From positions 1-16,182 of the IMG/VR virus record IMGVR_UViG_2526164689_000027: a stretch of 16,182 nucleotides of DNA. One strand, given 5' to 3'. Position numbers and translations under genes: made by a program. The notes below the pieces were generated by a model that saw only the letters and a list, made by a program, of their open reading frames with translations, was not told where the DNA came from and did no database searches. This document shows positions 1-16,182 of this stretch, one piece after another. Numbering within the stretch: the stretch's first letter is position 1; the number at the start of each line of letters is the position of its first letter. This stretch comes from a virus (taxonomy: Duplodnaviria; Heunggongvirae; Uroviricota; Caudoviricetes).

Positions 1-399
1 ATTCAGCGTACTCATATCCTGCACATCATGCAGGCAGTGGTCAGCCGGGATGATGTCGTTATACGTACAACTCTCTCCACCCGGAGTTACCGTGCTGCGG
101 CGCGCCAGCTGTTTAATGCGCGGATCCGGAGCATCGTAAGAATCCGGTAACGGAAGCCCTTCACCGTAGGCCATGCCGTTGGACTGTCCGGCAAGCACAA
201 CCACGTAGAACCAGTCCGGCTCAGATGAAGGGCCGACCTGTGGATCTCCTTCAATAGCCACCGCCTGCATCAGTGTGTACGGCGTAATGGCAACCGGTCC
301 GCCATATGGCTGCCAGCCCTCTTTCAGTTTGTGTGTCAGCTTTTCCGCAAGGTCTGACGGCGACGCCGCCCTGACAACATCATAATGTTTAATCGACAT
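1..399 (-). CDS. N-terminal 133 codons of a prophage NanS-p-like sialate O-acetylesterase (DUF1737-like N-terminus plus SGNH/SASA esterase domain); 3' end beyond window
   Basis: ATG at 399-397 with GGGAG SD 7 nt upstream; frame stays open to position 1. Translation begins MSIKHYDVVRAASPSDLAEKL and contains DWFYVVVLAGQSNGMAYGEG, which matches the GQSN catalytic-serine block of SGNH esterases. Not in the supplied ORF track because it is truncated. Confidence 0.6.
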   Translation of the reverse strand, partial: MSIKHYDVVRAASPSDLAEKLTHKLKEGWQPYGGPVAITPYTLMQAVAIEGDPQVGPSSEPDWFYVVVLAGQSNGMAYGEGLPLPDSYDAPDPRIKQLARRSTVTPGGESCTYNDIIPADHCLHDVQDMSTLN

Positions 400-782
400 C
401 GAATTTCTCCCGTGTACAGGAACAGAGTTAAAAAGCCGGAACCGGAATCAAATTACAGGATGGCCATCTGCCAGTGGCTGGTCGTAAAAAAAGGCCACGC
501 CATGCGCAGCCGGAAATAAAGGGATAACGATGATAGTTTGAGAAAAACAGAAACGACACTTTTGTGGCAAAGCATGGTGCCGGGTGCCTCCCGGTGAGTT
601 CAGCCCGGTGCCACTAAACCCTCGTCATTCTCGTTTTGATAATCAGAGATTATACCGTCACCAGTCGCCCCTCCGCTCAGGGGGATTCACCATGCAGTTT
701 TTTTCTAACAAATTCTCATCCGGGCAGACAACATTCAACTGACTTAATTGTGAGGTATGTAACATTCCTGTTGAACGGATAC

Positions 783-812
783 AAAAAAAGCCAGCCACTG
801 GGGGAGGCTGGC
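783..812 (-). terminator. Rho-independent terminator (minus-strand transcripts)
   Basis: Perfect 7-bp stem GCCAGCC (790-796) / GGCTGGC (806-812) with a 9-nt loop, followed on the minus strand by a run of 7 U (complement of A783-A789). Confidence 0.5.
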
Positions 813-995
813 GAAACTCGTAGAGCAAAAGTGTTGTTACACTAACTTCGTCACAGGGTTATCCTGCAATACTCAAAATACACAATATTTACAAAACTAA
901 TAGTATACAAGGCGATCTTTAAGATTTTGTTATAAATTATTGCCTTTCTCCTCTTTCCATGAGCTTTCTGGATAGCCACAGAATTCCGGGTACAG

Positions 996-1020
996 AAAAA
1001 CCCGCTCAGCGGCGGGTTTT
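996..1020 (-). terminator. Rho-independent terminator, tR'-like, closing the short transcript from the Q-adjacent promoter; symmetric so possibly bidirectional
   Basis: Stem CCCGC (1001-1005) / GCGGG (1012-1016) with a 6-nt loop, flanked by A5 on one side and T4 on the other, so a U-run follows the hairpin on either strand. Confidence 0.5.
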
Positions 1021-1069
1021 GCTACTTTGCCATCACGTACAAAATCGGCAAAATATCAGATTTGCATGA

Positions 1070-1098
1070 AATATATGCCTTTTAATCTACTTTTGCAA
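1070..1098 (-). promoter_or_regulatory. Sigma-70 late promoter, pR'-like, immediately downstream of the Q-like gene
   Basis: On the minus strand: -35 TTGCAA (1098-1093), 17-nt spacer, -10 TATATT (1075-1070). Predicted start near 1062 gives a ~65-nt transcript ending at the 996-1020 terminator, the arrangement used by Q antiterminators in lambda and phage 82. Confidence 0.35.
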
Positions 1099-1102
1099 TA
1101 CT

Positions 1103-1771: not shown

Positions 1772-2127
1772 GCGCACTCCAGTTCTGTGATTTTTATCCC
1801 CAGCCGCCCACCAGAAACGAGCTGACCGCGCACAATATTGATTTCATCAAACTGCTCGTCGTCTATGAGAAGTCCGGCATGCGTCAGCGCATCCAGTGGT
1901 GCTTTCAGGATATTGTCCAGGTCACGACGGCGCTTATCCGGTGGCTCTGCAATAATTTTTATTGCCAGCCGTCCGGACAGGCTTAATTTCAGTCGCTGCT
2001 GGCGAACAATTAGTGCCACATCACGGCGATAACGCTCACCGACTTTTGATACAAAATATGTGTTGCCACGACGTCGCCAGTAAGTATTCACCGTCGGCGG
2101 GTAAGGTAAAACCAAATCTATGAGCAT
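1768..2127 (-). CDS. rusA: Crossover junction endodeoxyribonuclease RusA (Holliday junction resolvase)
   Basis: 119 aa with ATG at 2127 and GAGGTG SD. Contains LPYPPTVNTYWRRRG and PDKRRRDLDNILKAPLDALTHAGLLIDDEQ, matching the conserved RusA core including the catalytic DRRRRDLDN-type block. Confidence 0.85.
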   Translation of the reverse strand: MLIDLVLPYPPTVNTYWRRRGNTYFVSKVGERYRRDVALIVRQQRLKLSLSGRLAIKIIAEPPDKRRRDLDNILKAPLDALTHAGLLIDDEQFDEINIVRGQLVSGGRLGIKITELECA

Positions 2128-2139
2128 CAGTCACCTCTT

Positions 2140-3189
2140 TTACCCGAGCACGCCAGTCGCAAAGGCGTGATCAAGAAAACGAAAAATTAACTCAATCTGA
2201 GAGCCGTACTTTTTCTCAAACTTCAGCGGGTCTGCATGAAGTTCGTTGTGGTGCTCCCGGCACAACGGTAGCGTGAAAATATCGTGGGCCTTTGTTCCCA
2301 CTCCCCCCTGACCATGACCAATCAGGTGATGCGGATCGTCAGCTGGCTTACCACAACACGCACACGGCTGTGTCTTTACCCAGCGCGTGTATTTCTCATT
2401 AACCCAACGGCGACGTTTAGGCCGCCTCATGAACGATTCAGGAGACTCCGGATCAACGGCGATACTGACAACCGTTTTTTTCTGTGGTGGATTTTGTTGC
2501 TGGTGGACGTGAAGTGGCAGCGCAATATTTTTTGTGCGCTGCTTCAGTATGCTGATGGCTGTCTGTTCTCCCGGTACGATGTCACTCTCACGGTATACGG
2601 AGCGGATTTTTTCCGCTGGTAATCCCAGCGAACGACGCGCTACTGCCTCAGGTAGTGCATCCACCACCTGATTGCAGGCCGCCCACCAGGATAATTCGGC
2701 CAGCGATAACTCCCTCTCCTGCGTACCGCTTATTGCGTGACGGATGACATCAATCATCCAGGCAACCAGATTCTGCTGAGCAAGTTGATCGAGTGATTCT
2801 GATGTCTGGTCGCGCAGCTGGTTGTCACAGTGCCAGCACAACACCATCGCGCCGGTACCATAACGGTGAATGACTGTTTCGCTGTGATGATAATCGCCGT
2901 GTGGCCACTGGCAGGATTTCACGTGACGTAATAACCAGTCAGACAGTGCACCTGCACCACCTGCTGCACGAATAACCCGCTCATCGCTGAAAAATGGCAG
3001 TAATGTTTTATCCTCTGCCAGCGGCTGGCGAACGGCAGGAACGACTCCGGACGGCAGACCACGCATGTTTTTCGGTTCCGGCTCCACCAATATTCTGCCG
3101 TTATGGAATACTGACATTGATTCACGGCCTGGCTTAACGATAACCAGACCGAGTTCCGGTACCAGAACAGGTCGAAGTAATACCCGCAC
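2140..3189 (-). CDS. ydfU: DUF968-family prophage protein (YdfU-like) with C-terminal HNH-like motif
   Basis: 349 aa from a GTG start at 3189 with GGAGGT SD, 1 nt after the upstream stop. Synteny with rusA and the Q-like gene matches Qin ydfU. C-terminus CACCGKPADDPHHLIGHGQGGVGTKAHDIFTLPLCREHHNELH resembles an HNH/zinc-finger nuclease motif. Confidence 0.65.
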   Translation of the reverse strand: MRVLLRPVLVPELGLVIVKPGRESMSVFHNGRILVEPEPKNMRGLPSGVVPAVRQPLAEDKTLLPFFSDERVIRAAGGAGALSDWLLRHVKSCQWPHGDYHHSETVIHRYGTGAMVLCWHCDNQLRDQTSESLDQLAQQNLVAWMIDVIRHAISGTQERELSLAELSWWAACNQVVDALPEAVARRSLGLPAEKIRSVYRESDIVPGEQTAISILKQRTKNIALPLHVHQQQNPPQKKTVVSIAVDPESPESFMRRPKRRRWVNEKYTRWVKTQPCACCGKPADDPHHLIGHGQGGVGTKAHDIFTLPLCREHHNELHADPLKFEKKYGSQIELIFRFLDHAFATGVLG

Positions 3190-3190
3190 G

Positions 3191-3513: not shown

Positions 3514-3741
3514 TTATAGCTGCTTCTGAATATCATCAACAGGTAATCCTGCCAACTCTCTTACCTCAGAAAGAAGAGAAAGGCTTACAACAACCTCATT
3601 ACTTCGCATAACAAAACCACATTGAAAAGAACCATCACTGTTTCTGTAAACAACAACCGGGCGCGTGCTCTCATAAAACCCCGGGATCAAACTGGCTGGG
3701 ATTTTCACAACACCTCCTGACGTAAAGGAAATGAAATGCAT
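3514..3741 (-). CDS. Hypothetical small protein (75 aa; alternative start at 3786)
   Basis: Open frame on the operon strand; ATG at 3741 has only a weak purine-rich SD. No recognisable motif. Confidence 0.3.
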   Translation of the reverse strand: MHFISFTSGGVVKIPASLIPGFYESTRPVVVYRNSDGSFQCGFVMRSNEVVVSLSLLSEVRELAGLPVDDIQKQL

Positions 3742-3944: not shown

Positions 3945-3964
3945 TATAAAATGCAGAGGCAGGT

Positions 3965-4336
3965 ATGCGAATTTTCAAAAACGCCTGGTTTGAACGTTTC
4001 GCCCGAAAACATCGGATTTCCGATAAATCGCTGCGCAAAATCGTGGAGCAGGCCGATAAGGGGATCATATCCGCAAATTTGGGTAGTGGTGTCATTAAAC
4101 AAAGATTAGCCCGAAGTGGTGGCGGAAAATCAGGCGGTTACCGGACAATAATTTTTTACCGCGTTGCAGAAAAAGCCTTTTTCATCTACGCATACGCAAA
4201 GAATGAACGAGAGAATATCACTGCTATAGAGGAAAATGCTTTTCGAAAAGCCGCTCCCCATGTCCTCAATCTTACTGATGAACAGCTGGCACAATTGATT
4301 CAACAAGGCCAGTTCACGGAGGTACCCAATGAGTAA
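3965..4336 (+). CDS. RelE/ParE-superfamily toxin, HigB-2 / Gp49-like (123 aa)
   Basis: Block GSGVIKQRLARSGGGKSGGYRTIIFYRVAEKAFFIYAYAKNERENITAIEENAFRK parallels the V. cholerae HigB-2 core (GTGGLRKIRV...GKRGGSRIIYYF...YLLTIYGKNE). Its stop overlaps the start of the next gene by 8 nt, with toxin first as in HigBA-type operons. Confidence 0.7.
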   Translation: MRIFKNAWFERFARKHRISDKSLRKIVEQADKGIISANLGSGVIKQRLARSGGGKSGGYRTIIFYRVAEKAFFIYAYAKNERENITAIEENAFRKAAPHVLNLTDEQLAQLIQQGQFTEVPNE

Positions 4337-4646
4337 AAATTACCGCAGTGATGCACTTGCATCTGTACATGAAATGATGGAGTCACTCCATGATATCGGT
4401 GCAATCACAAAACAAACTATGCGCGAATTCGATGAAACTTGTCTTCAGCCTGCGCCGGTAATGTCTCCGGAAAGGATCCGTGCACTGCGAGAACGAGAGC
4501 ATCTGTCTCAACCTGTTTTTGCCAGATACCTCAACGTCAGTAAAAACCTGATATCAGACTGGGAACGAGGAGTGAAACGCCCGGGAGGTGCAGCTCTTCG
4601 GCTTCTTTCAGTTGTCGAGAAAAACGGGATCCAGGTAATATCCTGA
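4329..4646 (+). CDS. HTH (XRE-type) antitoxin, HigA-2-like (105 aa)
   Basis: Translationally coupled to the toxin. C-terminal region RIRALREREHLSQPVFARYLNVSKNLISDWERGVKRPGGAALRLL is a typical XRE helix-turn-helix. Confidence 0.7.
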   Translation: MSKNYRSDALASVHEMMESLHDIGAITKQTMREFDETCLQPAPVMSPERIRALREREHLSQPVFARYLNVSKNLISDWERGVKRPGGAALRLLSVVEKNGIQVIS

Positions 4647-4748: not shown

Positions 4749-4904
4749 TTACTCCTCAGGTTCGTAAGCTGTGAAGACAGCGACCTCCGTCTGGCCGGTT
4801 CGGATTCGTACCTCGCAGAGGTCTTTCCTCGTTACCAGTGCCGTCACTATGACGGTTAAACAGATGACAATCAGGGCGATTAACATCGCCTTTTGCTGCT
4901 TCAT
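4749..4904 (-). CDS. hokD: Hok/Gef-family type I membrane toxin (HokD/RelF-like, 51 aa)
   Basis: MKQQKAMLIALIVICLTVIVTALVTRKDLCEVRIRTGQTEVAVFTAYEPEE matches the Hok/Gef family across its full length (transmembrane helix then conserved CEVR..GQTEVAVFTAYE). ATG at 4904; the track ORF extends in frame to an upstream ATG at 4961. Confidence 0.85.
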   Translation of the reverse strand: MKQQKAMLIALIVICLTVIVTALVTRKDLCEVRIRTGQTEVAVFTAYEPEE

Positions 4905-5175
4905 AGCCTGCTTCTCCTTGCCTTTCGGCACGTAAGAGGCTAACCTACATGTGCAAAGCATGAAATTGGCCTCAGATTAATGTTAAGCGTCCTGCAAGAC
5001 GCGTAATGTTAACTGGGGCTTTTCTCTGTCTGCCTTACGGCGGCATGCCCGAGGCAGACAGCCTCAAGCACCCGCAGCAATTCTACTTAACTCTTCTTTC
5101 CCCGCAAATCATTTTATCCCCGATGGTAATGTTCTCCCGATATGGGAATTCCCATATCAAGGTTAACTCAATCGG

Positions 5176-5727
5176 TTAAAGCTCCATTAATTTTCCGGCC
5201 AGTTCATCTCGTGGCATTACCAGCCATCCGCGCGATTTAAGCAAAGCCAGGGCTTCTTCAACCGTCACCAGCTGGCCAGGCGCATAACTTCGGATGAAGG
5301 CGGTTTTATCGTCACGGATCGCCAGGTGAAAATCGATATTCATTTTTCCCATAGCCCGCTCTTTCTCGTACTGGTTGAAGTAACTGTCTTCGAGTTTTTC
5401 GAATACTTCCCACGCCTGATCGGTTTCGAGCATTTTTGCATGACGGGCTGCTCCGCGTTCTGTCCAGAGGATGAGAGTGCGGGTTTTGGGAGAAATTTTC
5501 ACCTCATTTTGCGACTCGTTTAAAACTAGTCGCAAATTTTTGAGCTCATCACCAACAGCTTTAAAGAAGTGTTTTCCCTCAATAAATCGAGATTTATTTT
5601 CATGGTGATTCTGCTGTATACGGATTGCTTCTGTTCCGTAAAGGCGGGCGAGTAACTCAGTTGTGATTACAGGAATCTGGTTATAAGTGACAGGGGAAAG
5701 GTTTTTGACAGTAACTTGAGTCGTCAT
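5176..5727 (-). CDS. ORF6N-domain protein (phage antirepressor-like, 183 aa)
   Basis: ATG at 5727 with GAGGG SD. N-terminus ITTELLARLYGTEAIRIQQNHHENKSRFIEGKHFFKAVGDEL fits the ORF6N/KilA-N-like consensus (from recollection). Confidence 0.5.
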   Translation of the reverse strand: MTTQVTVKNLSPVTYNQIPVITTELLARLYGTEAIRIQQNHHENKSRFIEGKHFFKAVGDELKNLRLVLNESQNEVKISPKTRTLILWTERGAARHAKMLETDQAWEVFEKLEDSYFNQYEKERAMGKMNIDFHLAIRDDKTAFIRSYAPGQLVTVEEALALLKSRGWLVMPRDELAGKLMEL

Positions 5728-5891
5728 GATAACGCCCTCTGGTTGATGAATTTAACTATCACCACCTTCAGGTCTCAATCATCAGGTGGCGAGACGTACA
5801 GGGTTGAGACTACCGGATCAACCAACCGGCCAGCCTTTCGGCTGCCCCATACGCCTCACCATAATTCAGATGTGCGTGCGCATACGACAAT

Positions 5892-5913
5892 AAAAAACAC
5901 GCTCGCGGCGTGT
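5892..5913 (-). terminator. Rho-independent terminator in the nin-type region (tR2-like position)
   Basis: On the minus strand: stem ACACGC / GCGTGT with 5-nt loop CGCGA, followed by 6 U (complement of A5892-A5897). Confidence 0.45.
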
Positions 5914-5998
5914 GTCTGTCGCGGTTGAATATCCGGGGTCTCAATCCCGACGGTCAACTCGACCGTGCGGTGAATATAGCCCCGGATTAGTAATTACG

Positions 5999-6082
5999 TC
6001 AACCCCAGCGGCAAATCGAATAAACCACCAGCGCTACCGCCATTGCAACTCCTGCCGTTACGAATGCCTCAGGCCAGGTCAT
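5999..6082 (-). CDS. Possible 27-aa hydrophobic peptide (MTWPEAFVTAGVAMAVALVVYSICRWG)
   Basis: ATG overlaps the stop of the upstream small gene (ATGA, 6082-6079). The peptide is one predicted transmembrane helix. Below the size cutoff of the ORF track; no dedicated SD. Confidence 0.2.
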   Translation of the reverse strand: MTWPEAFVTAGVAMAVALVVYSICRWG

Positions 6083-6264
6083 CGTAAACTATCCTCAGCG
6101 CCAATCAGTCCGTTTCGCTTCAGGCAGTCCATCGCTTTATACGGTAATTTGGCTGACAGGCGAAAATCACCCTGCAGCATCAGGCTTATTCCCTTATCCC
6201 GGGCTTTCGCTCTGACCGCTGCCTCGCTACGACCAATCAGACTGCCGATACTTTCGACAGTCAT
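6079..6264 (-). CDS. Small putative DNA-binding protein (61 aa, NinH-like position)
   Basis: ATG at 6264; start is uncertain because the track ORF begins upstream at a non-ATG codon. MTVESIGSLIGRSEAAVRAKARDKGISL looks like a helix-turn-helix. Confidence 0.35.
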   Translation of the reverse strand: MTVESIGSLIGRSEAAVRAKARDKGISLMLQGDFRLSAKLPYKAMDCLKRNGLIGAEDSLR

Positions 6265-6323
6265 CGTTCCCGCGCACTGCCGGAGTATCAGAATTTCAGC
6301 CCGGCACCACGTCTTCCACCCAC

Positions 6324-7085
6324 TCACCGCTGCTGTTCTCTGGTGGCGGTAATATCCCGGAGAATATCCCGGCACTTGTTCAGCTCCCGCAGCGCGGCGC
6401 AGACTCGCTCCCACTTCTGAACCTGACCTTTTGCCCGGCGCAGCTCGCGGTTAGCCACATGCAGCGATGGTAAAATCAGCCCATCCGGATGCTTTCTGGT
6501 GAACGACGGCTGTGACTGCACTGTGACCGCCACACTTTCCGTTTTTATTTCTTCCTGTGTTTCCGCTTCCCGGACTGGTAACGCAACACATGCTGGCTGA
6601 GGAAAGGCTTTACCATCGGTTTCCGCTACGGATGCAGCTTCCGGCTCTGCCGGTAAATCAGCGCCCGGTATGCAGTAACGAAATTTACCGTTCTGATTTA
6701 CGCGTGCCAGGCGCCCCGTTGCTGTTACGACCGCCAACGTGGAAGCAACCTTGCGAATGCTAACACCGAACTTATCCGCCAGTTCCTCACACGTTTTAGC
6801 CCCATCCTGACAGATAAACTCAATCATCATGTCCGCGGTAACTTTTTGTTCGACCTCCCCGGTCAGCACATCCGGTACTTCAGACTGTGCTGGCTGTTCT
6901 TCGGTTACCCCGGATTCACCTTCGACAGCCAGAAACCAGGTGTGACCCGTTTTATCAACAACGCCATTTTTTTTGAGTTCCCACAGTTCGTTGAGAACTT
7001 CTTCACGGCTGATATCAAGCCGCGCCGCCAGTTCAACAGAATTGGCTTTACCCATCGCTTTCAGTGCATGCAATACGGTTCCCAT
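6324..7085 (-). CDS. Tandem winged-helix protein (254 aa), function unknown
   Basis: ATG at 7085 with GGAGG SD 9 nt upstream. Two repeated wHTH-like segments, [44 protein letters not shown] and [43 protein letters not shown], plus a charged C-terminal helix. Confidence 0.5.
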
Positions 7086-7119: not shown

Positions 7120-7785
7120 TCAGACAAAACCAGCCGCTTTCCGGCGTTCATACTCCTGTTTCAGCAACTCAATTGGCGTTGGTCCCAACGGGCGTTTTGG
7201 TGCCGCCAGTTGTCGCCGTACTGGCGGAACGCTCAGGCCGTTACTAACATGCTTTGCCCATTTCGTCAGCTGCCGTTCTGCAAGCCGTTTTAATTCCCCT
7301 TCGGTCATCTGGCGTTCAATCCCCTTTGAACGCATCTCGAGGCAAATGTGATACAGCACAGGCTGAGGCCACGGATATTTGTCGCTTCCGTTATATCGCC
7401 AGGACTCATTACGCCAGCGGCGATACTCCTCCATCACAGCATCCACCGTCAGGCCAAATGGATTGGCCCCGCTTTCCGAAATCAGCGCCACAAACTCAGC
7501 CAGGTCCGGAGGCCATGTTTCACCCGCCCGGCAGCGGTCCATGCACTGGCGGCAGACCTGCCGGATTTGCTGCTCAGTCATCGCGCCAATCTGTGCAATC
7601 CAGAGCTTCGAAGGTGCGGCCCCGTTCTTCTGGGTCCAGCGGTTCGAATAAACCTCCCCCATGAGTTCCCACAGCTTCCAGGCCGTTTCCGTCGCTGATA
7701 AATCCGTTTTCACGTTCCCACTGCTCACGTGCTGCCCGAATTTCCTGAACTGCCCGTGATGCGGTGCCACCTGGTGCTGCTGCAT
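7120..7785 (-). CDS. Replication protein P-like (lambda P family helicase loader, 221 aa)
   Basis: ATG at 7785 with AGGGGG SD, 4 nt after the O-like stop. Recalled blockwise similarity to lambda P: [13 protein letters not shown] vs [28 protein letters not shown] vs [33 protein letters not shown] vs TDAELRRKAADEL. Confidence 0.6.
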
Positions 7786-7788
7786 GGT

Positions 7789-8613
7789 TTACCCCCTTGC
7801 TGACTGGTTAACCTGCGCCCTGACGTGATTTACGTGACGGGCGAATTTCTGCTCCCACTGAATCTGCGTAAACACTTTCCCCTCCGCTGCCCAGTAGTCC
7901 CGGAATGCGGTAAGTTCAGCAGGTGTAAATTCTGTCTCCGGCAAAGCCATCCCCCACAACGCAGCCCGTCGTCGAAAATCCCGTGACGGATACCAGCTAT
8001 CGGTCATCGGAAATTTTCCGATGGGTTCGCTCAGGCCATCCAGGAATACATGGGGGGCTGCCTGTAACGACAAAACTTCCTGCTCACTGATCGGAGCACT
8101 CTCGCGTGCGTTATGTGTGGGGTTTAGATCTTTGGGTTCCTTTGGGTTCCGTGATCCGTTTTTGGGTGTCTTTGATGGAAAATTTGGGTGTCTTTGGTTA
8201 TTTTCCATGCAACAAAGAGTTCCGTTTTTGGGGCTCTTTTGTGCTGAAACATAACCGTTTTCGGTACTGTTTTTATTAACAGCACCAATTTTACCCACCT
8301 TTAAAGACACCCGTTTTTGGGTGTATTCAGGCTCGGCAACACTTTCTTCTACACCGATAAGTCGGTACACCACAATTTGCTTTGTTCTGCCTTTTCTCTC
8401 ACCGGTATCAACAATTAACCCAATCTCCATCAGGTGTCGTAAGCTGTCCTGCACAGTCTTTTTGTTCAGTTCCGTTACTTCTGCCAGTGCAGATACAGAC
8501 GGGTATGCACACAAATCGGCACCGCACATATCAGCAAGCCAGGTCAATACAGACTTACTGGATGAACTGCCGGTTTTCACCTTTTTAGCCCATCGTAGTG
8601 CATCGATACTCAT
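7789..8613 (-). CDS. Replication initiator, lambda O-like (274 aa), with ori iterons embedded in the coding sequence
   Basis: ATG at 8613 with AGGGG SD; the track's longer start at 8688 would overlap the upstream gene by about 100 nt. N-terminal wHTH (MSIDALRWAKK...LRHLMEIGLIVD), a repeat-encoded linker (KSPKNGT...SKTPKNGSRNPKEPK), and a C-terminal domain, directly upstream of the P-like gene. Confidence 0.6.
   Translation of the reverse strand: MSIDALRWAKKVKTGSSSSKSVLTWLADMCGADLCAYPSVSALAEVTELNKKTVQDSLRHLMEIGLIVDTGERKGRTKQIVVYRLIGVEESVAEPEYTQKRVSLKVGKIGAVNKNSTENGYVSAQKSPKNGTLCCMENNQRHPNFPSKTPKNGSRNPKEPKDLNPTHNARESAPISEQEVLSLQAAPHVFLDGLSEPIGKFPMTDSWYPSRDFRRRAALWGMALPETEFTPAELTAFRDYWAAEGKVFTQIQWEQKFARHVNHVRAQVNQSARG
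8131..8324. repeat. Iteron cluster, putative prophage origin of replication
   Basis: TTTGGGTTCC twice in tandem (8131-8150); TTTGGGTGTCTTTG at 8161-8174 and 8184-8197; degenerate copies at 8225-8240 and 8311-8324; an inverted copy AAAGACACCC at 8303-8312; AT-rich stretch 8253-8300. Lies in the linker region of the O-like gene, as the lambda ori does. Confidence 0.5.
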
Positions 8614-9136
8614 ACGAACCCCTGGCAGATATTTGTTTATCTGCAAAGTAATATTGATACTGCTGACGATACGCATGCTTGAAAGCAATAGCTTTTTCTA
8701 TAAGCTCGTCAGTCTCACGTTCCACAACAGATGGATCCGCAAAAAGCAGTCCGGACTCCACCACATCGCCATATTCTTTGTTTAACCCGGCGATCATGTA
8801 CGTGATGCTTTTTCCGTCACTAATTTCACGATACAACCTGAAATCATTAATCCGGATAGCCTCCATAATTGCAGGCACTAGCGCCGTGAACTTTTCACGC
8901 TTATCCCTGGTGTCGATAGCCTTCCAGCGTTCGAATATCTTCACTCGATTAACGCCAAGCGCTCGCTGATCAACCGCGCCACCTTCATCTGTGACACGCT
9001 GAACATCGATGTTCGGGCGCTCTTTCAAAACCCAGAATGCTTCAGTGATTAATATCGTCGCCTGCTCCTGTGTCATTCCTGGTCGACATATCCAGGCATC
9101 CAGAGCCTCACGAGCCTGTTCAGGAGTGATTTTCAT
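8585..9136 (-). CDS. Protein in the cII position (183 aa), possibly YdaT-like
   Basis: ATG at 9136 overlaps the end of the cro-like gene by 17 nt. Sits between cro-like and O-like genes. Family assignment is by position only and is weak. Confidence 0.4.
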   Translation of the reverse strand: MKITPEQAREALDAWICRPGMTQEQATILITEAFWVLKERPNIDVQRVTDEGGAVDQRALGVNRVKIFERWKAIDTRDKREKFTALVPAIMEAIRINDFRLYREISDGKSITYMIAGLNKEYGDVVESGLLFADPSVVERETDELIEKAIAFKHAYRQQYQYYFADKQISARGSYEYRCTTMG

Positions 9137-9347
9137 TGTTCAACCGCCCCGCCCGCTTCGTCTTACGATATTCGTCATAAACCTTGGGATCATACAGAAG
9201 CTCGCCGCCAGATGCCTCCTGTAGACGCATCGCGCGACCTTCAGGAACTAGCTCTTGCCATTGAGAAACAGCAGATGGGTCAACGCCAGCAGCTTTCGCT
9301 ACTTTGGCTTTCGTACCGTAAAAATTAATTACGTCTGATTTAAACAT
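9120..9347 (-). CDS. dicC: Cro-like HTH regulator (DicC / YdaS family, 75 aa)
   Basis: ATG at 9347 with GGAGGT SD; the track start at 9374 is upstream of the SD. Divergent from the repressor gene. AKVAKAAGVDPSAVSQWQ is a Cro/CI-type HTH, and the C-terminus RAMRLQEASGGELLYDPKVYDEY is typical of this family. Confidence 0.65.
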   Translation of the reverse strand: MFKSDVINFYGTKAKVAKAAGVDPSAVSQWQELVPEGRAMRLQEASGGELLYDPKVYDEYRKTKRAGRLNNENHS

Positions 9348-9354
9348 CGCACCT

Positions 9355-9424
9355 CCAATATTGAGTTTTCTCAATACTAATCACTCAAGGAATCTCAAGT
9401 CAAGGGTTATTAAGATATCTAAAT
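9355..9424. promoter_or_regulatory. Divergent immunity promoter/operator region (oR-like)
   Basis: 14-bp palindrome TTGAGTTTTCTCAA at 9361-9374. On the minus strand, -35 TTGACT (9403-9398) and a -10-like TAGTAT follow with the palindrome over the start site. The repressor gene starts at 9425 with no strong SD. Confidence 0.45.
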
Positions 9425-9832
9425 ATGAACGAGAAAACTTTAGGTCAACGCATTAGAGAAAGACGTAAGCAGGTAGGCTTAAGTCAAAACGGTTTAAGCA
9501 AAGCTGCTGGCGTATCTGGCTCATCAATTTCATTATGGGAAAGTGACCATACAGCCCCGCGCGGGCAAAATTTGCATCGCCTCGCCGAGGTATTGCAATG
9601 TTCACCAACCTGGATACTGTTTGGCGACGAGGACAAAACACCAGCTCCCCCTGTTTCACTCGATAGTACCCTAGACTTATCGGAAGATGAGTTAGAGATG
9701 CTGCGTTTGTATCGCGCACTTCCTAAATCAGAGCAACAAGCACAACTCAGCGAACTCCGCGCCCGCGTTGAGAATTTTAATCGCCTGTTCACCGAGCTAT
9801 TAGAGGCTCGCAAACGCAACAAGCATCAATAA
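9425..9832 (+). CDS. dicA: DicA-like prophage repressor (XRE HTH, 135 aa)
   Basis: N-terminal HTH QRIRERRKQVGLSQNGLSKAAGVSGSSISLWESDH, then LQCSPTWILFGDEDK and C-terminus ELRARVENFNRLFTELLEARKRN, closely matching my recollection of E. coli DicA, which is also 135 aa. Confidence 0.8.
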   Translation: MNEKTLGQRIRERRKQVGLSQNGLSKAAGVSGSSISLWESDHTAPRGQNLHRLAEVLQCSPTWILFGDEDKTPAPPVSLDSTLDLSEDELEMLRLYRALPKSEQQAQLSELRARVENFNRLFTELLEARKRNKHQ

Positions 9833-9890: not shown

Positions 9891-9948
9891 CAATACTTGA
9901 GTTTTCTCATCAAAAAACCTTGACGAAAAATAATGAGAAAACTAAATT
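9891..9948 (+). promoter_or_regulatory. oL/pL-like operator-promoter for the leftward early operon
   Basis: CAATACTTGAGTTTTCTCA (9891-9909) repeats the oR motif CAATATTGAGTTTTCTCA (9356-9373) with one extra base; an inverted copy ATGAGAAAACTA is at 9932-9943. -35 TTGACG (9920-9925), 17-nt spacer, -10 TAAATT (9943-9948), with operator copies covering the spacer. Confidence 0.4.
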
Positions 9949-10024
9949 ATCTCCATCAACACACCGCACGGTGTTCTCCGCAAACAGTTCCGCTACCCCG
10001 GCGTTAAGGGGAAATGAGGTCAGC

Positions 10025-10177
10025 ATGGATACTATCGATCTTGGCAACAACGAATCTCTGGTATGTGGCGTGTTTCCCAATCAGGACGGCACGTTTACCG
10101 CGATGACGTATACCAGAAGCAAAACGTTTAAAACGGAAGCTGGCGCGCGTCGCTGGTTAGCAAGAAACTCTGACTGA
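10025..10177 (+). CDS. ydfA: YdfA-like small protein (50 aa), first gene of the dicB-type operon
   Basis: ATG at 10025 with GAGG SD 7 nt upstream; the longer track ORF from 9869 has no SD and crosses the promoter. Size and position after dicA match Qin ydfA. Confidence 0.5.
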   Translation: MDTIDLGNNESLVCGVFPNQDGTFTAMTYTRSKTFKTEAGARRWLARNSD

Positions 10178-10827
10178 TGAGGTTGACGATGGAATTTAAA
10201 GATTTACCTCCTTCAATCCAGGAGATTGCAGCACACACACTTCGTCATCGTCTGAACGAACTTGAATTGGAATCGGTAACGAAAAAAGACACTGATAATA
10301 TGGCTCGTAATGTGCGCGATGCGTTTACCGGATTGTATTTCTGTGCGTCTATAAATAAACACGACTCAGAGAGTGTGGCAAATAAAATTGCAGAAACGAC
10401 AGCGCAAAACATCAATACGAAACCAACGGAAGAAGAAATTGATCAGTTTGCTCATGATGCTGGTTTAAAAAACAAGAAAGAAAAATCGCCATATGCGGGG
10501 AACATGTTTGTTTATGACAATCTCATCAGAATTCGTGGCGAAATTCCGGCGGAATACCTGGCAAGAGTCCATCAGGCATTGCTTAAAAATTTGGAAACAG
10601 AATTATTTGATGGCAACACTAACGGTTTCTTCATGGTATCAGGCCTTGAGAAAGACTGGGATGCAGAAAAACGCTGGAATGTTGCTACATGGTTATTCAG
10701 TAACAGAGCCGCTGCACTGGAAGCTTCGGCATGTATTTGCGGCCTGTTCTTAACAGACCACAAATATAATCTGGATGTGTACAGTTATATTTACGCTGAA
10801 CACGGTCCACTCTGGATTGACTGGTAA
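10177..10827 (+). CDS. Hypothetical 216-aa protein, no recognisable domain (alternative start 10189)
   Basis: ATG at 10177 overlaps the upstream stop (TGATG); the internal ATG at 10189 has a GAGG SD. Soluble, acidic, no transmembrane segment or nucleotide-binding motif seen. Occupies the slot where I recall Qin carrying only the small ydfB/ydfC genes. Confidence 0.5.
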   Translation: MRLTMEFKDLPPSIQEIAAHTLRHRLNELELESVTKKDTDNMARNVRDAFTGLYFCASINKHDSESVANKIAETTAQNINTKPTEEEIDQFAHDAGLKNKKEKSPYAGNMFVYDNLIRIRGEIPAEYLARVHQALLKNLETELFDGNTNGFFMVSGLEKDWDAEKRWNVATWLFSNRAAALEASACICGLFLTDHKYNLDVYSYIYAEHGPLWIDW

Positions 10828-11037
10828 TTATAAGGAAACACCAGCAGGGCCGCGGCGACCAACAGAACGATTAAAATCAATAATGCCATTATAAAGGACA
10901 TTATTTAATTTATCGTCGAATGCTGATTCTGTGAGCCTCAACTCTGAATGAGTTTTTAATAACCCTGATTGCCTGAGTTGATTTACCAGGCATTCAATCT
11001 GTTTTTCAATAAGCGGATTTCTTTTTTTGTTTGGCAT
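10828..11037 (-). CDS. Hypothetical 69-aa protein, convergent with and abutting the 216-aa gene
   Basis: ATG at 11037 with GGAGGA SD 5 nt upstream. Its stop codon (10830-10828) directly abuts the stop of the plus-strand gene (10825-10827). Opposite orientation to the surrounding operon. Confidence 0.35.
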   Translation of the reverse strand: MPNKKRNPLIEKQIECLVNQLRQSGLLKTHSELRLTESAFDDKLNNVLYNGIIDFNRSVGRRGPAGVSL

Positions 11038-11376: not shown

Positions 11377-11434
11377 TTCTGGTGACATTTGGCGGTATCA
11401 GTTTTACTCCGTGACTGCTCTGCCGCCCTTTTTT
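11377..11434 (+). ncRNA. dicF: DicF small regulatory RNA (Hfq-dependent sRNA targeting ftsZ and other mRNAs)
   Basis: TTCTGGTGACATTTGGCGGTATCAGTTTTACTCCGTGACTGCTCTGCCGCCCTTTTTT matches my recollection of E. coli DicF almost base for base, including the terminator hairpin GGCGG (11391-11395) / CCGCC (11423-11427) and U-tract. Lies just upstream of dicB as in Qin. The 5' end is approximate (RNase-processed in K-12). Confidence 0.7.
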
Positions 11435-11604: not shown

Positions 11605-11793
11605 ATGGAAAAGTTATCATGTAATGCCAGCACGTCTGAACTTCGTTTCGAAATTGGCGTTATCACTGGAGACAAAACATTTATTGAAGACGCCATTAAG
11701 CAGAGAAAACTCGAGCAGGACCTGTTAAATGAAGTATGCATTCCTTCAATGCTGGCTCGTCTGGACCTGCTGCAAAAAGGATATAAACAATGA
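11605..11793 (+). CDS. dicB: Cell-division inhibitor DicB (62 aa)
   Basis: ATG at 11605 with GAGGA SD; the track ORF from 11500 would run through DicF. MEKLSCNASTSELRFEIGVITGDKTFIEDAIKQRKLEQDLLNEVCIPSMLARLDLLQKGYKQ aligns with recalled DicB (FEIGV, EDAI, SMLARL blocks) at the same 62-aa length. Confidence 0.8.
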   Translation: MEKLSCNASTSELRFEIGVITGDKTFIEDAIKQRKLEQDLLNEVCIPSMLARLDLLQKGYKQ

Positions 11794-11981
11794 ATACAAC
11801 ATTTGCACTCGTTCTGACAGTTTATCTTGTTTCCGGCGAATCTCTTGAGCTGGTGACTGGCTTATACGGTTCAATGAAAGAATGCATGGCTGCAGCAGCA
11901 GAACAAAAAATTCCCGGTAACTGTTATCCGGTAGATAAAACTACTCACACTAATAATAACGAAATACCGGCAGGACTTTAA
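11790..11981 (+). CDS. ydfD: YdfD-like small lysis/membrane protein (63 aa)
   Basis: ATG overlaps the dicB stop (ATGA). Hydrophobic N-terminus MNTTFALVLTVYLVSG, 63 aa, immediately after dicB as in Qin. Confidence 0.65.
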   Translation: MNTTFALVLTVYLVSGESLELVTGLYGSMKECMAAAAEQKIPGNCYPVDKTTHTNNNEIPAGL

Positions 11982-12074: not shown

Positions 12075-14546
12075 ATGAGTAAAGTCTTTATTTGCGCCGC
12101 CATTCCGGACGAACAGGCAATAAAAGAAGAGGGCGCAGTTGCTGTAGCCACTGCCATTGAAGCCGGTGATGAACGCCGCGCCCGTGCCAAATTTACCTGG
12201 CAATTCCTGGAGCAATATCCTGCTGCTCAGGACTGCGCTTATAAATTTCTTGTCTGCGAAGATAAACCTGGCATGCCCCGCCCTGCTATCGACTCCTGGG
12301 ATACCGAATATATGCAGGAAAACCGCTGGGATGAGGAATCCGCTTCCTTTATTCCGGTCGAACCAGAATCCGATCCTATTAACGTCAATTTTGACAAGCT
12401 GTCCCTTGAAGTACAGAACGCGGTCCTGGTTAAGTTCGGTACATGTGAAAACATCACCGTTGATATGGCGATTGACGCGCAGGAATTACTGCAAGAAGAC
12501 GTGGCTACCTTTGACGGACATATCGTTGAAGCACTGATGAAAACGCCTGAAATTAACGCTATGTATCCGGAACGCAAACTGTTCGCTATCGGATGGGTTA
12601 AACACAAATGTAAGCCGGGTACCAAATGGCCCGAAATTCAGGCTGAATTACGTAACTGGAAAAAACGGCAGGACGCAGAGCGCAAAGAGACTGGAAAATA
12701 CACGTCTGTTGTTGATCTTGCCCGCGCCAAAGCCAACCGACAGCACACTGAAAACCCAGCAGAAAAAATCCCTCCTGTAACTGCCGCCATTCATCGCGAA
12801 TACAAGCAGACATGGAAAACCCTGGACAGGGAGCTGGCCTACTATCTCTGGCCTGGTGATGCGGATGCCGGAAACATTGACGGCAGCATCCTTCGCTGGG
12901 CTAAAAATGAAGTTATCGCCAGAGATCGCGAAGACTGGAAGCGCATCTCCGCATCAATGCGCAAACAACCTGATGCGCTTCGCTACAGCCGCCAGACTAT
13001 TTTTGGCCTTGTCCGTGAACGTCCGATCGACATTCACAAAGACCCTGTGGCACTGAACAAATACATTACTGAATACCTGACTACAAAGGGCGTGTTTGAA
13101 GATGAAGGAAGAAATCAGAGCGCAACTGATACTCTCTCGTCGCCAGTACCAGAAACTGATGCAGTGGAAACGGCAATTCAGGACAACGAAAAAACCGAAT
13201 GCAAAGTGGAAGTCGAATCATCTGTAGAGCGTGAGGGGCCGTTCTACTTCCTCTTCAGCGACAAGGATGGCGAAAAATACGGTCGTGCAAACAAACTTTC
13301 TGGTCTGAATAAGGCGCTGGCTGCAGGGGCTACTGAAATCACGAAAGAAGAATATTTTGCCCGCAAAAACGGTACATACTCAGGTTCACAACAAAATACT
13401 GGTGCATCTGACACGATCGCACAACCGGAGCCGGTAAAAGTTACCGCTGACGAAGTAAACAAAATTATGCAGGCAGCCAATATCAGCCAGCCTGACGCCG
13501 ATAAGTTGCTTGCTGTATCACGTGGTGAATTTGTTGCAGGGATTAGCGACCCGAATGATCCGAAATGGGTGAAGGAGATTGAAACCCGCGATTCAGTGAA
13601 TCAGAACCAGCAAGAAACGGAACAGAACGACCAGAAAGCGGAACAAAACAGCCCAAATGCGTTACAAAACGAGCCAGAAACGAAACAATCCGAACCAGTA
13701 GTGCAACAGGAACCGGAAAAAGTCTGCACCGCCTGCGGTCAGAGCGGTGGCGGCAACTGCCCCGATTGTGGCGCTGTCATGGGCAACGCAACATACCAGG
13801 AAACATTCGATGAAGAGAATCAGGTTGAAGCTCAGGAGAATGATCCGGAGGAAATGGAAGGCGCTGAACATCCACACAAGGAGAACACTGGCGGCAATCA
13901 GCATCACGCCAGCGATAGTGAAACTGGCGAGGCGGCAGATCCCTTAATTAAGGTGAATGGTCATCACAATCTCACATCCACCAGCAGAGCGGGGATTCAT
14001 CTGATGATCGACATTGAAACCATGGGAAAAAATCCCAATGCCGCGATTATCTCAATAGGCGCAATATTTTTCGATCCACAAACCGGAGATATGGGACCGG
14101 AATTTAGCAAGACCATCGATCTGGATACTGCTGGCGGAGTTATTGATCGTGACGTCATTAAATGGTGGCTGAAGCAATCACGTGAAGCGCAGTCTGCCAT
14201 TCTGACCGATGAAATCCCGTTAGATGATGCACTACTGCAATTGCGGGAATTTATCGCCGAAAACTCCGGTGAATTTTTTGTTCAGGTCTGGGGAAATGGA
14301 GCCAACTTCGACAACGTGATTTTACGCCGTTCATACGAACGGCAGGGGATCCCCTGCCCCTGGCACTACCACAACGATCGCGATGTACGCACAATCGTTG
14401 AGCTAGGGAAAGCCATAGACTTCGATGCCAGAACAGCTATCCCATTCGAAGGTGAGCGCCACAATGCACTTGATGACGCCCGTTACCAGGCAAAATACGT
14501 TTCAGCTATCTGGCAAAAACTGATCCCGAGTCAGGCTGATTTTTAA
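12075..14546 (+). CDS. Large prophage exonuclease (823 aa): unassigned N-terminal region, Cys4 zinc ribbon, C-terminal DEDDh 3'-5' exonuclease domain
   Basis: ATG at 12075 with GAGG SD. C-terminal motifs MIDIETMG (Exo I), WGNGANFDNVIL (Exo II) and HNALDDARYQ (Exo III) define a DnaQ-like DEDDh exonuclease. CTACGQSGGGNCPDCG (about 13721-13775) is a CxxC...CxxC zinc ribbon. Position corresponds to Qin ydfE, which I recall as a 306-aa IS-truncated remnant in K-12. Confidence 0.75.
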   Translation: MSKVFICAAIPDEQAIKEEGAVAVATAIEAGDERRARAKFTWQFLEQYPAAQDCAYKFLVCEDKPGMPRPAIDSWDTEYMQENRWDEESASFIPVEPESDPINVNFDKLSLEVQNAVLVKFGTCENITVDMAIDAQELLQEDVATFDGHIVEALMKTPEINAMYPERKLFAIGWVKHKCKPGTKWPEIQAELRNWKKRQDAERKETGKYTSVVDLARAKANRQHTENPAEKIPPVTAAIHREYKQTWKTLDRELAYYLWPGDADAGNIDGSILRWAKNEVIARDREDWKRISASMRKQPDALRYSRQTIFGLVRERPIDIHKDPVALNKYITEYLTTKGVFEDEGRNQSATDTLSSPVPETDAVETAIQDNEKTECKVEVESSVEREGPFYFLFSDKDGEKYGRANKLSGLNKALAAGATEITKEEYFARKNGTYSGSQQNTGASDTIAQPEPVKVTADEVNKIMQAANISQPDADKLLAVSRGEFVAGISDPNDPKWVKEIETRDSVNQNQQETEQNDQKAEQNSPNALQNEPETKQSEPVVQQEPEKVCTACGQSGGGNCPDCGAVMGNATYQETFDEENQVEAQENDPEEMEGAEHPHKENTGGNQHHASDSETGEAADPLIKVNGHHNLTSTSRAGIHLMIDIETMGKNPNAAIISIGAIFFDPQTGDMGPEFSKTIDLDTAGGVIDRDVIKWWLKQSREAQSAILTDEIPLDDALLQLREFIAENSGEFFVQVWGNGANFDNVILRRSYERQGIPCPWHYHNDRDVRTIVELGKAIDFDARTAIPFEGERHNALDDARYQAKYVSAIWQKLIPSQADF

Positions 14547-14615
14547 TGTTCAACCATCGCCGGTTGTGACTGGTATTCTGCAACCGGCCCTCATCTGATG
14601 TAAGAGATAAAAGCG

Positions 14616-14867
14616 ATGAGCGAAGTAATCATGATTGTCTCTCCCGGTAAATGGGTATCCGAAGAGCAGTTAATTGCGCTGAAAGGAATAAAAAAAGGTA
14701 CGTTAAAAAAGGCCCGGGAAAAATCGTTTATGGAAGGAAGGGAATATAAGCATGTCGCTCATGACGGTATGCCATGGGATAACAGTCCATGCTTTTACAA
14801 CCTGGAAGAAATTGATCGCTGGATTGAGCGCCAGGCATCTGCAAGACCAAGACGTCATCTTGCTTGA
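14616..14867 (+). CDS. Excisionase-like protein (83 aa)
   Basis: Small basic protein directly upstream of the integrase; WVSEEQLIALKGIKKGTLKKAREKSFMEGREYKH is consistent with a winged-helix Xis fold. Start is uncertain (14616 or 14631). Confidence 0.5.
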   Translation: MSEVIMIVSPGKWVSEEQLIALKGIKKGTLKKAREKSFMEGREYKHVAHDGMPWDNSPCFYNLEEIDRWIERQASARPRRHLA

Positions 14868-14901
14868 CTAAAAGCAACACGAACCAATGAGAGAAGCTGA
14901 A

Positions 14902-16182
14902 ATGAAATATCCGACAGGCGTGGAAAACCATGGAGGGAAATTACGTATCTGGTTTGTTTATAAAGGTGTAAGAGTCCGGGAAAATCTTGGGGTTCCTGAC
15001 ACAGCAAAAAACAGGCGCATTGCAGGTGAGCTACGCGCCTCTGTTTGTTACGCAATAAAAACTGGCGCTTTCGACTATGCAAAACAGTTTCCCGCCTCAC
15101 ACAATCTGGAAAAATTTGGTGAGGCCCGACAAGATTTAACCATAAAAGAACTGGCTGAAAAATTTCTGGCACTGAAAGAAACTGAAGTCGCAAAAACGTC
15201 ACTCAACACGTACCGTGCCGTCATCAAAAATATTCTGAGCATAATCGGTGAAAAAAATCTTGCATCATCGATTAATAAAGAAAAATTGCTGGCGGTACGT
15301 AAAGAGTTACTGACTGGATACCAGATCCCCAAAAGTAACTATATTGTTACACAACCAGGGAGATCGGCTGTTACCGTAAATAATTACATGACAAATCTTT
15401 ACGCCGTGTTCCAGTTTGGTGTTGATAACGGTTATCTGGCAGACAATCCATTTAAGGGGATCTCACCATTAAAGGAGTCGAGAACCATCCCGGATCCACT
15501 TTCGCGGGAGGAGTTTATCCGCCTTATTGACGCGTGCAGAAATCAGCAAGCCAAAAATTTATGGTGTGTTTCCGTTTATACTGGGATTCGCCCTGGTGAA
15601 CTCTGTGCGCTTGGATGGGAAGATATAGATCTGAAAAATGGAACAATGATAATCAGAAGAAATCTGGCAAAAGACCGTTTTACAGTACCAAAAACACAGG
15701 CGGGAACCAATCGTGTGATTCACCTTATTAAGCCCGCAATCGACGCTCTCCGGAGTCAGATGGCACTAACGAGACTGAGCAAAGAGCATATCATCGATGT
15801 TCACCTCAGAGAATTCGGCAGAACAGAGAAACAAAAATGTACCTTTGTTTTTCAACCTGAAGTGTCAGCGAAAGTAAAAAATTATGGTGACCATTTTACC
15901 GTTGACTCAATAAGGCAGATGTGGGACGCAGCGGTAAAGCGTGCCGGAATCCGCCATCGCAAATCGTATCAGTCGAGACACACTTATGCCTGCTGGTCGT
16001 TAACAGCAGGAGCTAACCCGGCATTCATTGCAAACCAGATGGGCCATGCAGATGCGCAAATGGTGTTTCAGGTGTACGGGAAATGGATGTCAGAAAATAA
16101 TAATGCGCAGGTAACGCTGTTAAATACACAGTTAAGCGAGTTTGCCCCAACCATGCCCCATAACGAAGCGATGAAAAGTTAA
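14902..16182 (+). CDS. Tyrosine-type phage integrase (426 aa from ATG 14902; alternative ATG 14887)
   Basis: Catalytic-domain signature RPGELCALGWEDID ... SRHTYACWSLTAGANPAFIANQMGHADAQMVFQVYGKWM (R, H-x-x-R, G-H, Y). N-terminus MKYPTGVENHGGKLRIWF is typical of lambdoid prophage integrases. The stop TAA is at 16180-16182, the window end. Confidence 0.85.
   Translation: MKYPTGVENHGGKLRIWFVYKGVRVRENLGVPDTAKNRRIAGELRASVCYAIKTGAFDYAKQFPASHNLEKFGEARQDLTIKELAEKFLALKETEVAKTSLNTYRAVIKNILSIIGEKNLASSINKEKLLAVRKELLTGYQIPKSNYIVTQPGRSAVTVNNYMTNLYAVFQFGVDNGYLADNPFKGISPLKESRTIPDPLSREEFIRLIDACRNQQAKNLWCVSVYTGIRPGELCALGWEDIDLKNGTMIIRRNLAKDRFTVPKTQAGTNRVIHLIKPAIDALRSQMALTRLSKEHIIDVHLREFGRTEKQKCTFVFQPEVSAKVKNYGDHFTVDSIRQMWDAAVKRAGIRHRKSYQSRHTYACWSLTAGANPAFIANQMGHADAQMVFQVYGKWMSENNNAQVTLLNTQLSEFAPTMPHNEAMKS

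Follow-up and report, generated by a model that had tools for sequence, protein, structure and literature searches.

A ydfJ-integrated lambda-like prophage of Escherichia coli is a mosaic counterpart of the K-12 Qin prophage

The virus record IMGVR_UViG_2526164689_000027 of IMG/VR (16,182 nucleotides, analysed at full length and called the window below) raises the question of whether the degraded Qin prophage of Escherichia coli K-12 has an intact counterpart, as a first-pass annotation of this DNA had proposed. The layout described here was read from the sequence, and functions were assigned from work on lambda and Qin. The best overall explanation, which we hold with high confidence, is that the window covers, from the late promoter and Q through int, the early half of a temperate lambda-like prophage belonging to the ydfJ-integrating group 'PPydfJ'. 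Judged by its sequence, the element is nearly complete and is the positional and syntenic counterpart of Qin, yet its relation to Qin is that of a mosaic, and its immunity differs. The proposal of an intact counterpart held for the insertion site, the gene order and the presence of functions that Qin has lost; it did not hold for the immunity region or, in the sequence as given, for the O-like gene, which is frameshifted.

A megablast search with the window at full length, run on 5,426 complete E. coli genomes (the reference set for all genome counts here), gave a single full-length match at 100.0% identity, on the reverse strand of the chromosome of O111:H11 strain 8D (NZ_CP077469.1, 2613204-2629386). 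At least 80% of the window was covered in 8 of the 5,426 genomes. Direct comparison with 8D, where the span is 16,183 bases, showed one difference: TTT in 8D is TT in the window, at 7808-7809. The window itself is bases 2-16183 of draft contig AIGI01000027.1 (assembly GCA_000249855.2), and the AIGI accession lies inside the range given to drafts of the E. coli DECA collection (PMC3558956). Because this contig begins inside the prophage, the late half in the source strain is beyond reach.

In 8D the element is a 45.7-kb lambda-like prophage, of which the window is the Q-to-int half. Its neighbours are rspB, next to int, and a 5'-truncated ydfJ at the far end, so that the insertion falls within the 5' end of ydfJ; these two genes also enclose K-12 Qin. 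The two ends of the 8D element share the exact 11-bp sequence TTATGGATTTC, with 45,707 bp between the copies, as the core of a 16-17-bp imperfect match. In the orientation of the window this att core reads GAAATCCATAA and lies just outside the window, 36-37 nt past the stop codon of int; the source contig has it too, at its int end. The att site that the first-pass annotation suggested looking for past position 16182 is thus there, with its paired copy at the far end of the 8D element. When the outer flanks were joined in silico across one copy of the core, an open ydfJ frame resulted that was 100% identical over 311 nt to unoccupied ydfJ, and the ydfJ junction is uninterrupted, i.e., the site is unoccupied, in 2,009 of the 5,426 genomes. 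The attP junction predicted for the excised form contains ...CACCTGTGAATTATGGATTTCAAGAGTCATTC....

Beside the att core, which 8D shows to be duplicated at both ends, lie genes for a tyrosine integrase and an excisionase, as is characteristic of lambdoid prophages. Int (14887-16182, + strand, 431 aa) has arm-binding and catalytic domains and the catalytic residues R235, R364, H387 and Y397; an identical 431-aa Int is indexed in 8,957 blocks of an assembly collection. Xis (14616-14867, +) belongs to DUF1233. Both genes are intact, as had been claimed, and so is the exonuclease gene that precedes them (12075-14546, +), whose 823-aa product aligns end to end with phrog_2082 (1-823 of 823) and has a C-terminal DEDD 3'-5' exonuclease (Rv2179c-like) domain. 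The source annotation labels this protein YdfE_N and YdfE_C. Its identification as RecE was considered and rejected: the RecE model NF007259 scored 286 bits against a cut-off of 1269. Because that model matches only a central, non-catalytic stretch (residues 246-625), far under the cut-off, and the catalytic domain is of the DEDD type, we assign the protein to the YdfE family. A 21-nt tandem repeat in the gene (4.3 copies, 13598-13688) encodes a low-complexity linker rich in Q, E and N.

Comparison with K-12 Qin (NC_000913.3, 1632277-1652745) showed a common gene order over ~14 kb: Q, ydfU, hok, ydaT/ydfX, dicC, dicA, ydfA, dicF, dicB, ydfD, ydfE and int. The window shares with Qin and the PPydfJ group both the insertion between ydfJ and rspB and the combination of an IntQ-type integrase with a dicBF operon downstream of dicA. 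Nucleotide similarity to Qin is patchy, consisting of seven blocks of 82-98% identity, several of them at 92-98%. Protein identity to the K-12 homologue is 100% for HokD, 97% for the N-terminus of the YdaT-family protein (against YdfX), 94% for Int (against the IntQ remnant), 92% for YdfA, 85% for YdfU, 84% for the exonuclease N-terminus (against the YdfE remnant), 70% for Cro (against DicC), 63% for YdfD, 57% for the repressor (against DicA) and 55% for DicB; the 52-nt DicF RNA differs from K-12 DicF at two bases. Qin has no O, P or xis, no intact int, no full exonuclease gene and few of the late genes. Its ydfE is a pseudogene cut by IS2E, its intQ is a pseudogene, and its ydfX is an N-terminal 93-aa remnant of a YdaT-like protein, so that the first-pass annotation had described the state of Qin correctly (ydfE interrupted, intQ a pseudogene, O and P gone). 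Differences also run the other way: the window lacks relBE, rem, ydfV, flxA, ydfB and ydfC or has other sequence in their place, the Q of the window is unrelated to that of Qin, and neither Q, nor the toxin-antitoxin pair, nor the gene in the rem position has a Qin homologue.

The immunity region has the lambdoid layout of a divergent repressor and Cro with shared operator-like sites that recur at a PL-like promoter. The repressor gene (9425-9832, +, 135 aa) gives a full-length match to the DicA-family model NF007257 (model positions 1-135 of 135; 239 bits against a cut-off of 101), and Pfam shows helix-turn-helix (HTH) domains only, with no S24 peptidase domain; the protein is thus a DicA-family, non-cleavable type of repressor. 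The DicC/Cro-type regulator (9120-9347, -, 75 aa) scores 165 bits with the NCBIfam DicC model (cut-off 130). Between them, the divergent control region (9348-9424, no strand assigned) holds two palindromic operator-like sites, 9360-9375 (ATTGAGTTTTCTCAAT) and 9408-9425, as well as a leftward promoter-like site at 9403-9374. A dicBp-like (PL-like) promoter follows the repressor gene (9893-9950, +), with TTGACG-17-TAAATT at 9920-9948 and a leader homologous to that of K-12 dicBp; copies of the operator motif at 9897-9909 and 9934-9946 flank and overlap it. Of the four sites, which are of the TTGAG-N4-CTCA type, two lie in the dicC-dicA intergenic region and two bracket the rightward promoter. 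The 13-mer TTGAGTTTTCTCA occurs exactly at 9361 and 9897, with one mismatch at 9934, and nowhere else in the window at up to one mismatch. The K-12 operators (TGTTAG...CTAACA) are absent from the window, and those of the window are absent from K-12; with operators that differ and a repressor only 57% identical, the specificity is not that of K-12 Qin. Leftward of the Cro-type gene lies a gene for a YdaT-family (CII-like) protein (8585-9136, -, 183 aa), for which a sequence search returned no solved structure.

A much closer immunity region is found in mEp460_ev081 (LR597641.1), a functional phage carrying dicB, dicF, dicAC and rem (PMC10448788). Only 54% of the window aligns with it, at 91% nucleotide identity. 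The two share Cro and HokD (each 100%), the repressor and Xis (each 99%), the YdaT-family protein (97.5%), Int (96%), the exonuclease (90%) and YdfU (89%), and mEp460 has all four operator-like sites at identical spacing. It differs from the element of the window in having another O/P module, another Q, a true rem and a pin/ydfK end like that of K-12 Qin, and its DicB is just 56% identical. The near-identical repressor and Cro, together with the conserved spacing of the operator-like sites, suggest that mEp460 and the prophage of the window are very probably homoimmune, and that the latter is heteroimmune to Qin. The isolated coliphages mEp460, HannyBb, PhiR42_1 and Tritos have the end with int, xis and the exonuclease in common with the window, and the sharing of immunity and integration modules with viable phages, to go by sequence, supports the reading of the element as a Qin counterpart.

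The layout resembles that of lambda in running int-xis-exo...PL, repressor, PR-cro-cII-like-O-P...Q-PR', with iterons inside the initiator gene, a P-family helicase loader, an arm-binding tyrosine integrase and, in 8D, a virion gene set of the lambda type. By annotation, the late genes of 8D comprise holin, lysozyme, Rz, terminase, portal, protease, D, E, FI, FII, Z, U, V, G, T, H, M, L, K, I, J, lom and stf; the far end carries nleC as cargo and a DinI-like gene. The element differs from lambda in that its repressor is of the short DicA type without an autocleavage domain, its initiator is an HTH plus DnaT-like protein in place of lambda O, Exo/Bet have given way to a DEDD exonuclease, dicF, dicB and ydfD are part of the PL operon, and hok/sok, RelE/ParE and C4/Ant modules have been added. 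Between holin and lysozyme in 8D, outside the window, there is an insert of ~1 kb holding a DUF1327-fusion open reading frame (ORF) and an unannotated 233-aa ORF on the reverse strand that belongs to no family; it is possibly a moron.

All genes downstream of the dicBp-like promoter that are on the + strand run from ydfA through int: YdfA homologue (10025-10177), a 212-aa ORF (10189-10827), the DicF small RNA (11377-11428; Rfam, 77 bits), DicB (11605-11793; NCBIfam, 123.7 against a cut-off of 100), a homologue of the lysis protein YdfD (DUF1482; 11790-11981), and then the exonuclease, xis and int. The 212-aa ORF is abutted by a 69-aa ORF on the antisense strand (10828-11037, -) that has its own promoter-like site; the two take the place of K-12 ydfB/ydfC, are both common in E. 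coli, and matched no family in Pfam, NCBIfam or PADLOC.

Genes for DicB, DicF, YdfD and Hok are all present, as Rfam, NCBIfam, Pfam and homology to K-12 agree, and the first-pass annotation had placed all four under a single DicA-type switch. That placement is apt for dicF, dicB and ydfD, and is unsupported for the rest, because hok, the RelE/ParE pair and the antirepressor units are separate from the dicBp arm. The host-killing functions, which that annotation took to be expressed, should be repressed in a lysogen. hokD (4749-4904, -; Pfam HOK_GEF, 81.7 bits) lies on the other arm and the other strand, with its own sok/leader RNA region (4899-5073, -; Rfam sok, 117 bits against a gathering score of 59). 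Hok ORF, upstream leader and sok antisense region together form a hok/sok type I locus. The hok frame extends to 4961 as an ORF of 70 codons; the ancestral hokD ORF has ~70 codons (PMC6379469). Homology to K-12 ends 14 nt upstream of the hokD ATG, where K-12 has relE. At the map position of K-12 relBE, in the opposite orientation and without sequence similarity to relBE, the window has a toxin of the RelE/ParE superfamily (PF06296; 3965-4336, +) and an HTH antitoxin (4329-4646, +). Further along is a module like P1 immI (5176-6002, -), made up of a promoter (6002-5973, 10/12), an IsrK-like RNA (5966-5892), a C4 antisense RNA (5866-5782) and an ORF6N antirepressor gene (5727-5176); it was recognized by Rfam (C4, 69 bits; isrK, 51 bits), by Pfam (ORF6N) and by the anti-repressor PHROG (1e-77). 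hok/sok, the RelE/ParE pair and the C4/IsrK-antirepressor module each have their own control, on the other side of the DicA-type switch.

A second antirepressor candidate is the 64-aa ORF between ydfU and hok (3514-3708, -), i.e., in the rem position. Its product shows 13/32 identities (41%) to Rem of mEp460 and a marginal match to the Rem family phrog_340 (E=0.0033), with which its position agrees. In K-12, where dicBp is repressed by DicA and DicA/DicC form a bistable switch, the small protein Rem acts as antirepressor, and urea or heat induces dicBp without a need for RecA (PMC10448788). Control of either candidate by LexA was considered and found unsupported: a scan for CTGT-N8-ACAG gave no LexA box upstream of the ORF6N module or of the ORF in the rem position, and the sole zero-mismatch site in the window (8267-8282) is inside the O-like gene. 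Two LexA-type sites with one mismatch lie within the 64-aa ORF itself, at 3638-3659. With neither an S24 domain in the repressor nor a LexA box before the antirepressor candidates, mitomycin C is not an obvious inducer (cf. PMC10448788), and the mitomycin C test that had been suggested for this prophage is poorly matched to a repressor that has no cleavage domain.

The replication module had been described as uninterrupted O- and P-like genes with an iteron origin. The P-like helicase loader (7120-7581, -, 153 aa; Pfam Phage_lambda_P, phrog_109) is indeed intact. The O-like initiator gene (7574-8613, -), which encodes an N-terminal HTH and, at residues 201-267, a DnaT-like domain (Pfam), specifies 346 aa in 8D, where its stop codon overlaps the start of the P-like gene. 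In the window, the missing base at 7808-7809 (+ strand coordinates) breaks this frame, so that translation beginning with the ATG at 8613 gives 268 native residues followed by 6 frameshifted ones and stops at 7789, not at 7574. The next ATG, at 7785, starts a 221-codon ORF in the P frame, which is open that far upstream because of the frameshift in O. The long ORFs 7789-8688 and 7120-7785 are therefore frameshift products, and were probably what the earlier reader took for O and P. As for the origin, a family of iteron-like repeats of the form CCGTTTTTGGG[T/G]GTCTTT, with shorter TTTGGGT units, is present as described (8130-8330, no strand assigned), in a ~200-bp, 35-45% GC stretch halfway along the O-like gene; a 19-mer from it, searched at up to 3 mismatches, has 3 matches where chance would give 0.01. 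This region may serve as the replication origin, as its counterpart does in lambda. The perfect LexA-box-like palindrome at 8267-8282, CTGTTTTTATTAACAG, falls within this iteron-bearing, AT-rich part of the gene and may be there by chance.

The 79-nt context of the frameshift was fully covered in 1,127 genomes, none of them identical to the window there; these carry it with a single difference, like the in-frame 8D allele. The window allele was found in 0 of the 5,426. A second one-base homopolymer deletion lies right after the int stop, at contig bases 16184-16188, where direct alignment showed T5 in the draft against T6 in 8D and eight other genomes. Over 18.6 kb, these two single-base deletions are the only differences between the contig and 8D, and there are no substitutions. 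Two homopolymer undercalls unique to the draft among many genomes, with zero substitutions, are the signature of sequencing error, and we regard the O deletion as probably such an error, a judgement that comes from the pattern of differences; if so, the prophage would be intact as in 8D, and 'uninterrupted', although literally wrong for O in the window, is probably right biologically. A real deletion is unlikely but would matter: the element would then be a 'grounded' copy keeping immunity, killing genes, excision functions and origin without a normal initiator, and its induction would lead to excision and host killing with little or no autonomous replication unless a co-resident lambdoid prophage supplied O. 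The deletion is, after all, present in the sequence as given, and an exact-protein look-up found the truncated 274-aa product on record, for contig AIGI01000027.1 only. The affected run has just three bases, where homopolymer errors in a consensus are rarer. The 78 residues lost are conserved in full-length homologues at 51-58% identity from Klebsiella, Enterobacter, Salmonella and Yokenella, although the truncation falls just past the DnaT-like domain and partial function might remain; complementation in trans is also conceivable, since other strains carry up to 3 copies of the O segment per genome.

Two further readings bear on the relation to Qin and on induction. One is that the element is no genealogical counterpart of Qin at all, and is an unrelated mosaic lambdoid phage that landed in ydfJ by virtue of sharing an integrase/att module. 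This we consider possible though doubtful. It draws on the patchiness of the nucleotide similarity, on the low identity of the repressor and DicB, on the parts of the window that are without K-12 Qin equivalent (Q, the toxin-antitoxin pair, the rem position, the ydfB/ydfC region and the O/P module), and on the ydfK/pinQ end of Qin, which resembles mEp460 and not the 8D prophage; but the common gene order from Q to int and the nucleotide blocks of 92-98% identity argue against it, and the same site and order with many shared modules amount to the closest counterpart status that mosaic lambdoid phages can have. The other, that this is a fully intact Qin counterpart inducible through the SOS response (mitomycin C) with DicB, DicF, YdfD and Hok under one DicA-type switch, is improbable. 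It fits the position of dicF, dicB and ydfD after a promoter bracketed by operator-like sites, the intact int, xis, exonuclease, P, iterons and att site, and the in-frame O and full late genes of 8D; it does not fit the interrupted O of the window, hokD with its own sok/leader RNA across the switch, the separate RelE/ParE and antirepressor units, the missing S24 domain, the lone perfect LexA-type site inside O, the RecA-independent induction of K-12 dicBp (PMC10448788) or an immunity specificity unlike that of Qin. Several points also weigh against reading the window as half of an intact prophage. The O-like ORF is interrupted by the one-base deletion, which, if real, leaves the element without a replication start of its own, at least with the normal initiator. 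The intactness of the source strain outside the contig is extrapolated solely from 8D. The Prokaryotic Genome Annotation Pipeline (PGAP) marks remnants, though only small ones, at 376-518, at 6148-6327 and in the lysis region of 8D. The roles given to operators, promoters, origin and antirepressors are putative, drawn from motif position and homology; there is no rem orthologue; and action of the C4/IsrK/ORF6N module on a DicA-type repressor is a candidate link.

On the preferred reading, of a temperate ydfJ prophage with a DicA-type switch, the element might work as follows. The DicA-family repressor would bind the four TTGAG-N4-CTCA-type sites and shut two promoters: a leftward, PR-like one expected to drive cro/dicC, ydaT, O and P on to Q, and the rightward dicBp/PL-like one expected to drive ydfA, the 212-aa ORF, dicF, dicB, ydfD, the exonuclease, xis and int. 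Derepression would probably come about through an antirepressor or a flip of the bistable DicA/DicC switch, not through RecA-mediated cleavage, the candidate antirepressors being the ORF6N protein behind the C4/IsrK-type RNAs and the small ORF in the rem position. Thereafter DicF and DicB would be expected to stop division and YdfD to lyse the cell, Xis and Int to excise the element at the 11-bp core in ydfJ, O and P to initiate replication from the iterons within O, and Q to activate late gene expression. Outside the switch, hok/sok and RelE/ParE would act as autonomous addiction modules. Tentatively, and with less than even expectation, the imported P1 immI-like module (5176-6002), possibly together with the protein encoded at 3514-3708, may govern lysogeny of this DicA-type prophage; if true, SOS-independent, RNA-gated induction would be an uncharacterised wiring of the lambdoid DicA/DicC switch.

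Elements of this kind are already documented, because ydfJ prophages and mEp460 are in the literature (PMC8112680, PMC6379469, PMC10448788). Qin-site prophages of 11-97 kb have been catalogued in 189 strains (PMC6379469). 'PPydfJ' prophages were described in enterohaemorrhagic and enteropathogenic E. coli lineages, one of them a non-Stx phage with nleC that occupies ydfJ in O26:H11 strain 11368 (Nakamura et al. 2021, PMC8112680). In that strain, PPydfJ-R yielded an attP amplicon that served to define an att sequence of 18-19 bp (PMC8112680), which implies a circularised form of that prophage. Along with the closely related modules of isolated phages, this amplicon is indirect evidence that prophages of the group may be inducible and mobile. 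By its published description, the 11368 prophage resembles that of 8D in being lambda-like and in ydfJ, with a short att and with nleC opposite the int end; it differs in the length of att, given as 18-19 bp in that paper against the 11-bp exact core found for the 8D element. In some other genomes an identical int is followed by the att core and then by nleG-carrying prophage DNA instead of rspB, which points to tandem or nested prophages at the site, as in PMC8112680.

The remaining features belong mostly to the leftward arm, where Q is followed by late promoter, leader and terminator in the lambdoid manner. The Q antitermination protein (1103-1771, -, 222 aa) is intact, matches Pfam Phage_antiter_Q over model positions 1-216 of 220, and gave no BLASTP match to K-12 YdfT/QuuQ. 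The late-promoter region (493-1098, -) combines a promoter-like site (1098-1070), an STnc100-type leader RNA (724-536; Rfam, 133.7 bits) and an intrinsic terminator (511-493), and we infer that it is the analogue of PR'/6S/tR', with the promoter in the role of PR'. The first late gene (1-399, -), cut by the start of window and contig, retains 133 codons of the 5' end of a NanS-p-like gene for a 617-aa protein with DUF1737, SASA sialate-esterase and DUF6645 domains; proteins of this type are found downstream of stx in Shiga toxin (Stx) phages. Upstream of Q in the direction of transcription lie genes for a RusA resolvase (1768-2127, -) and a DUF968/YdfU homologue (2140-3189, -); between the immI-like module and P lie a small DNA-binding-protein remnant (6079-6327, -; marked partial by PGAP over 6148-6327), whose best phage match is in the phage D6 genome, and a DUF1627 protein gene (6324-7085, -). 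The window has no tRNA genes and no stx, and PADLOC found no anti-phage defence system among the unassigned ORFs, only generic HTH or DEDD matches; the source annotation names all the hypothetical proteins simply 'hypothetical'.

The element is real but ordinary, and the value of the analysis is mainly corrective; it raises no question beyond the published work on Qin, PPydfJ and mEp460. A one-base homopolymer difference in a draft can yield two plausible ORFs that are mistaken for intact O and P. With a non-cleavable DicA-type repressor, induction is better sought through antirepressors or the bistable switch than with mitomycin C. Intact relatives of the decayed Qin prophage exist and are common, and they carry nleC together with the DicF, DicB and YdfD genes in attaching-and-effacing lineages of E. 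coli.

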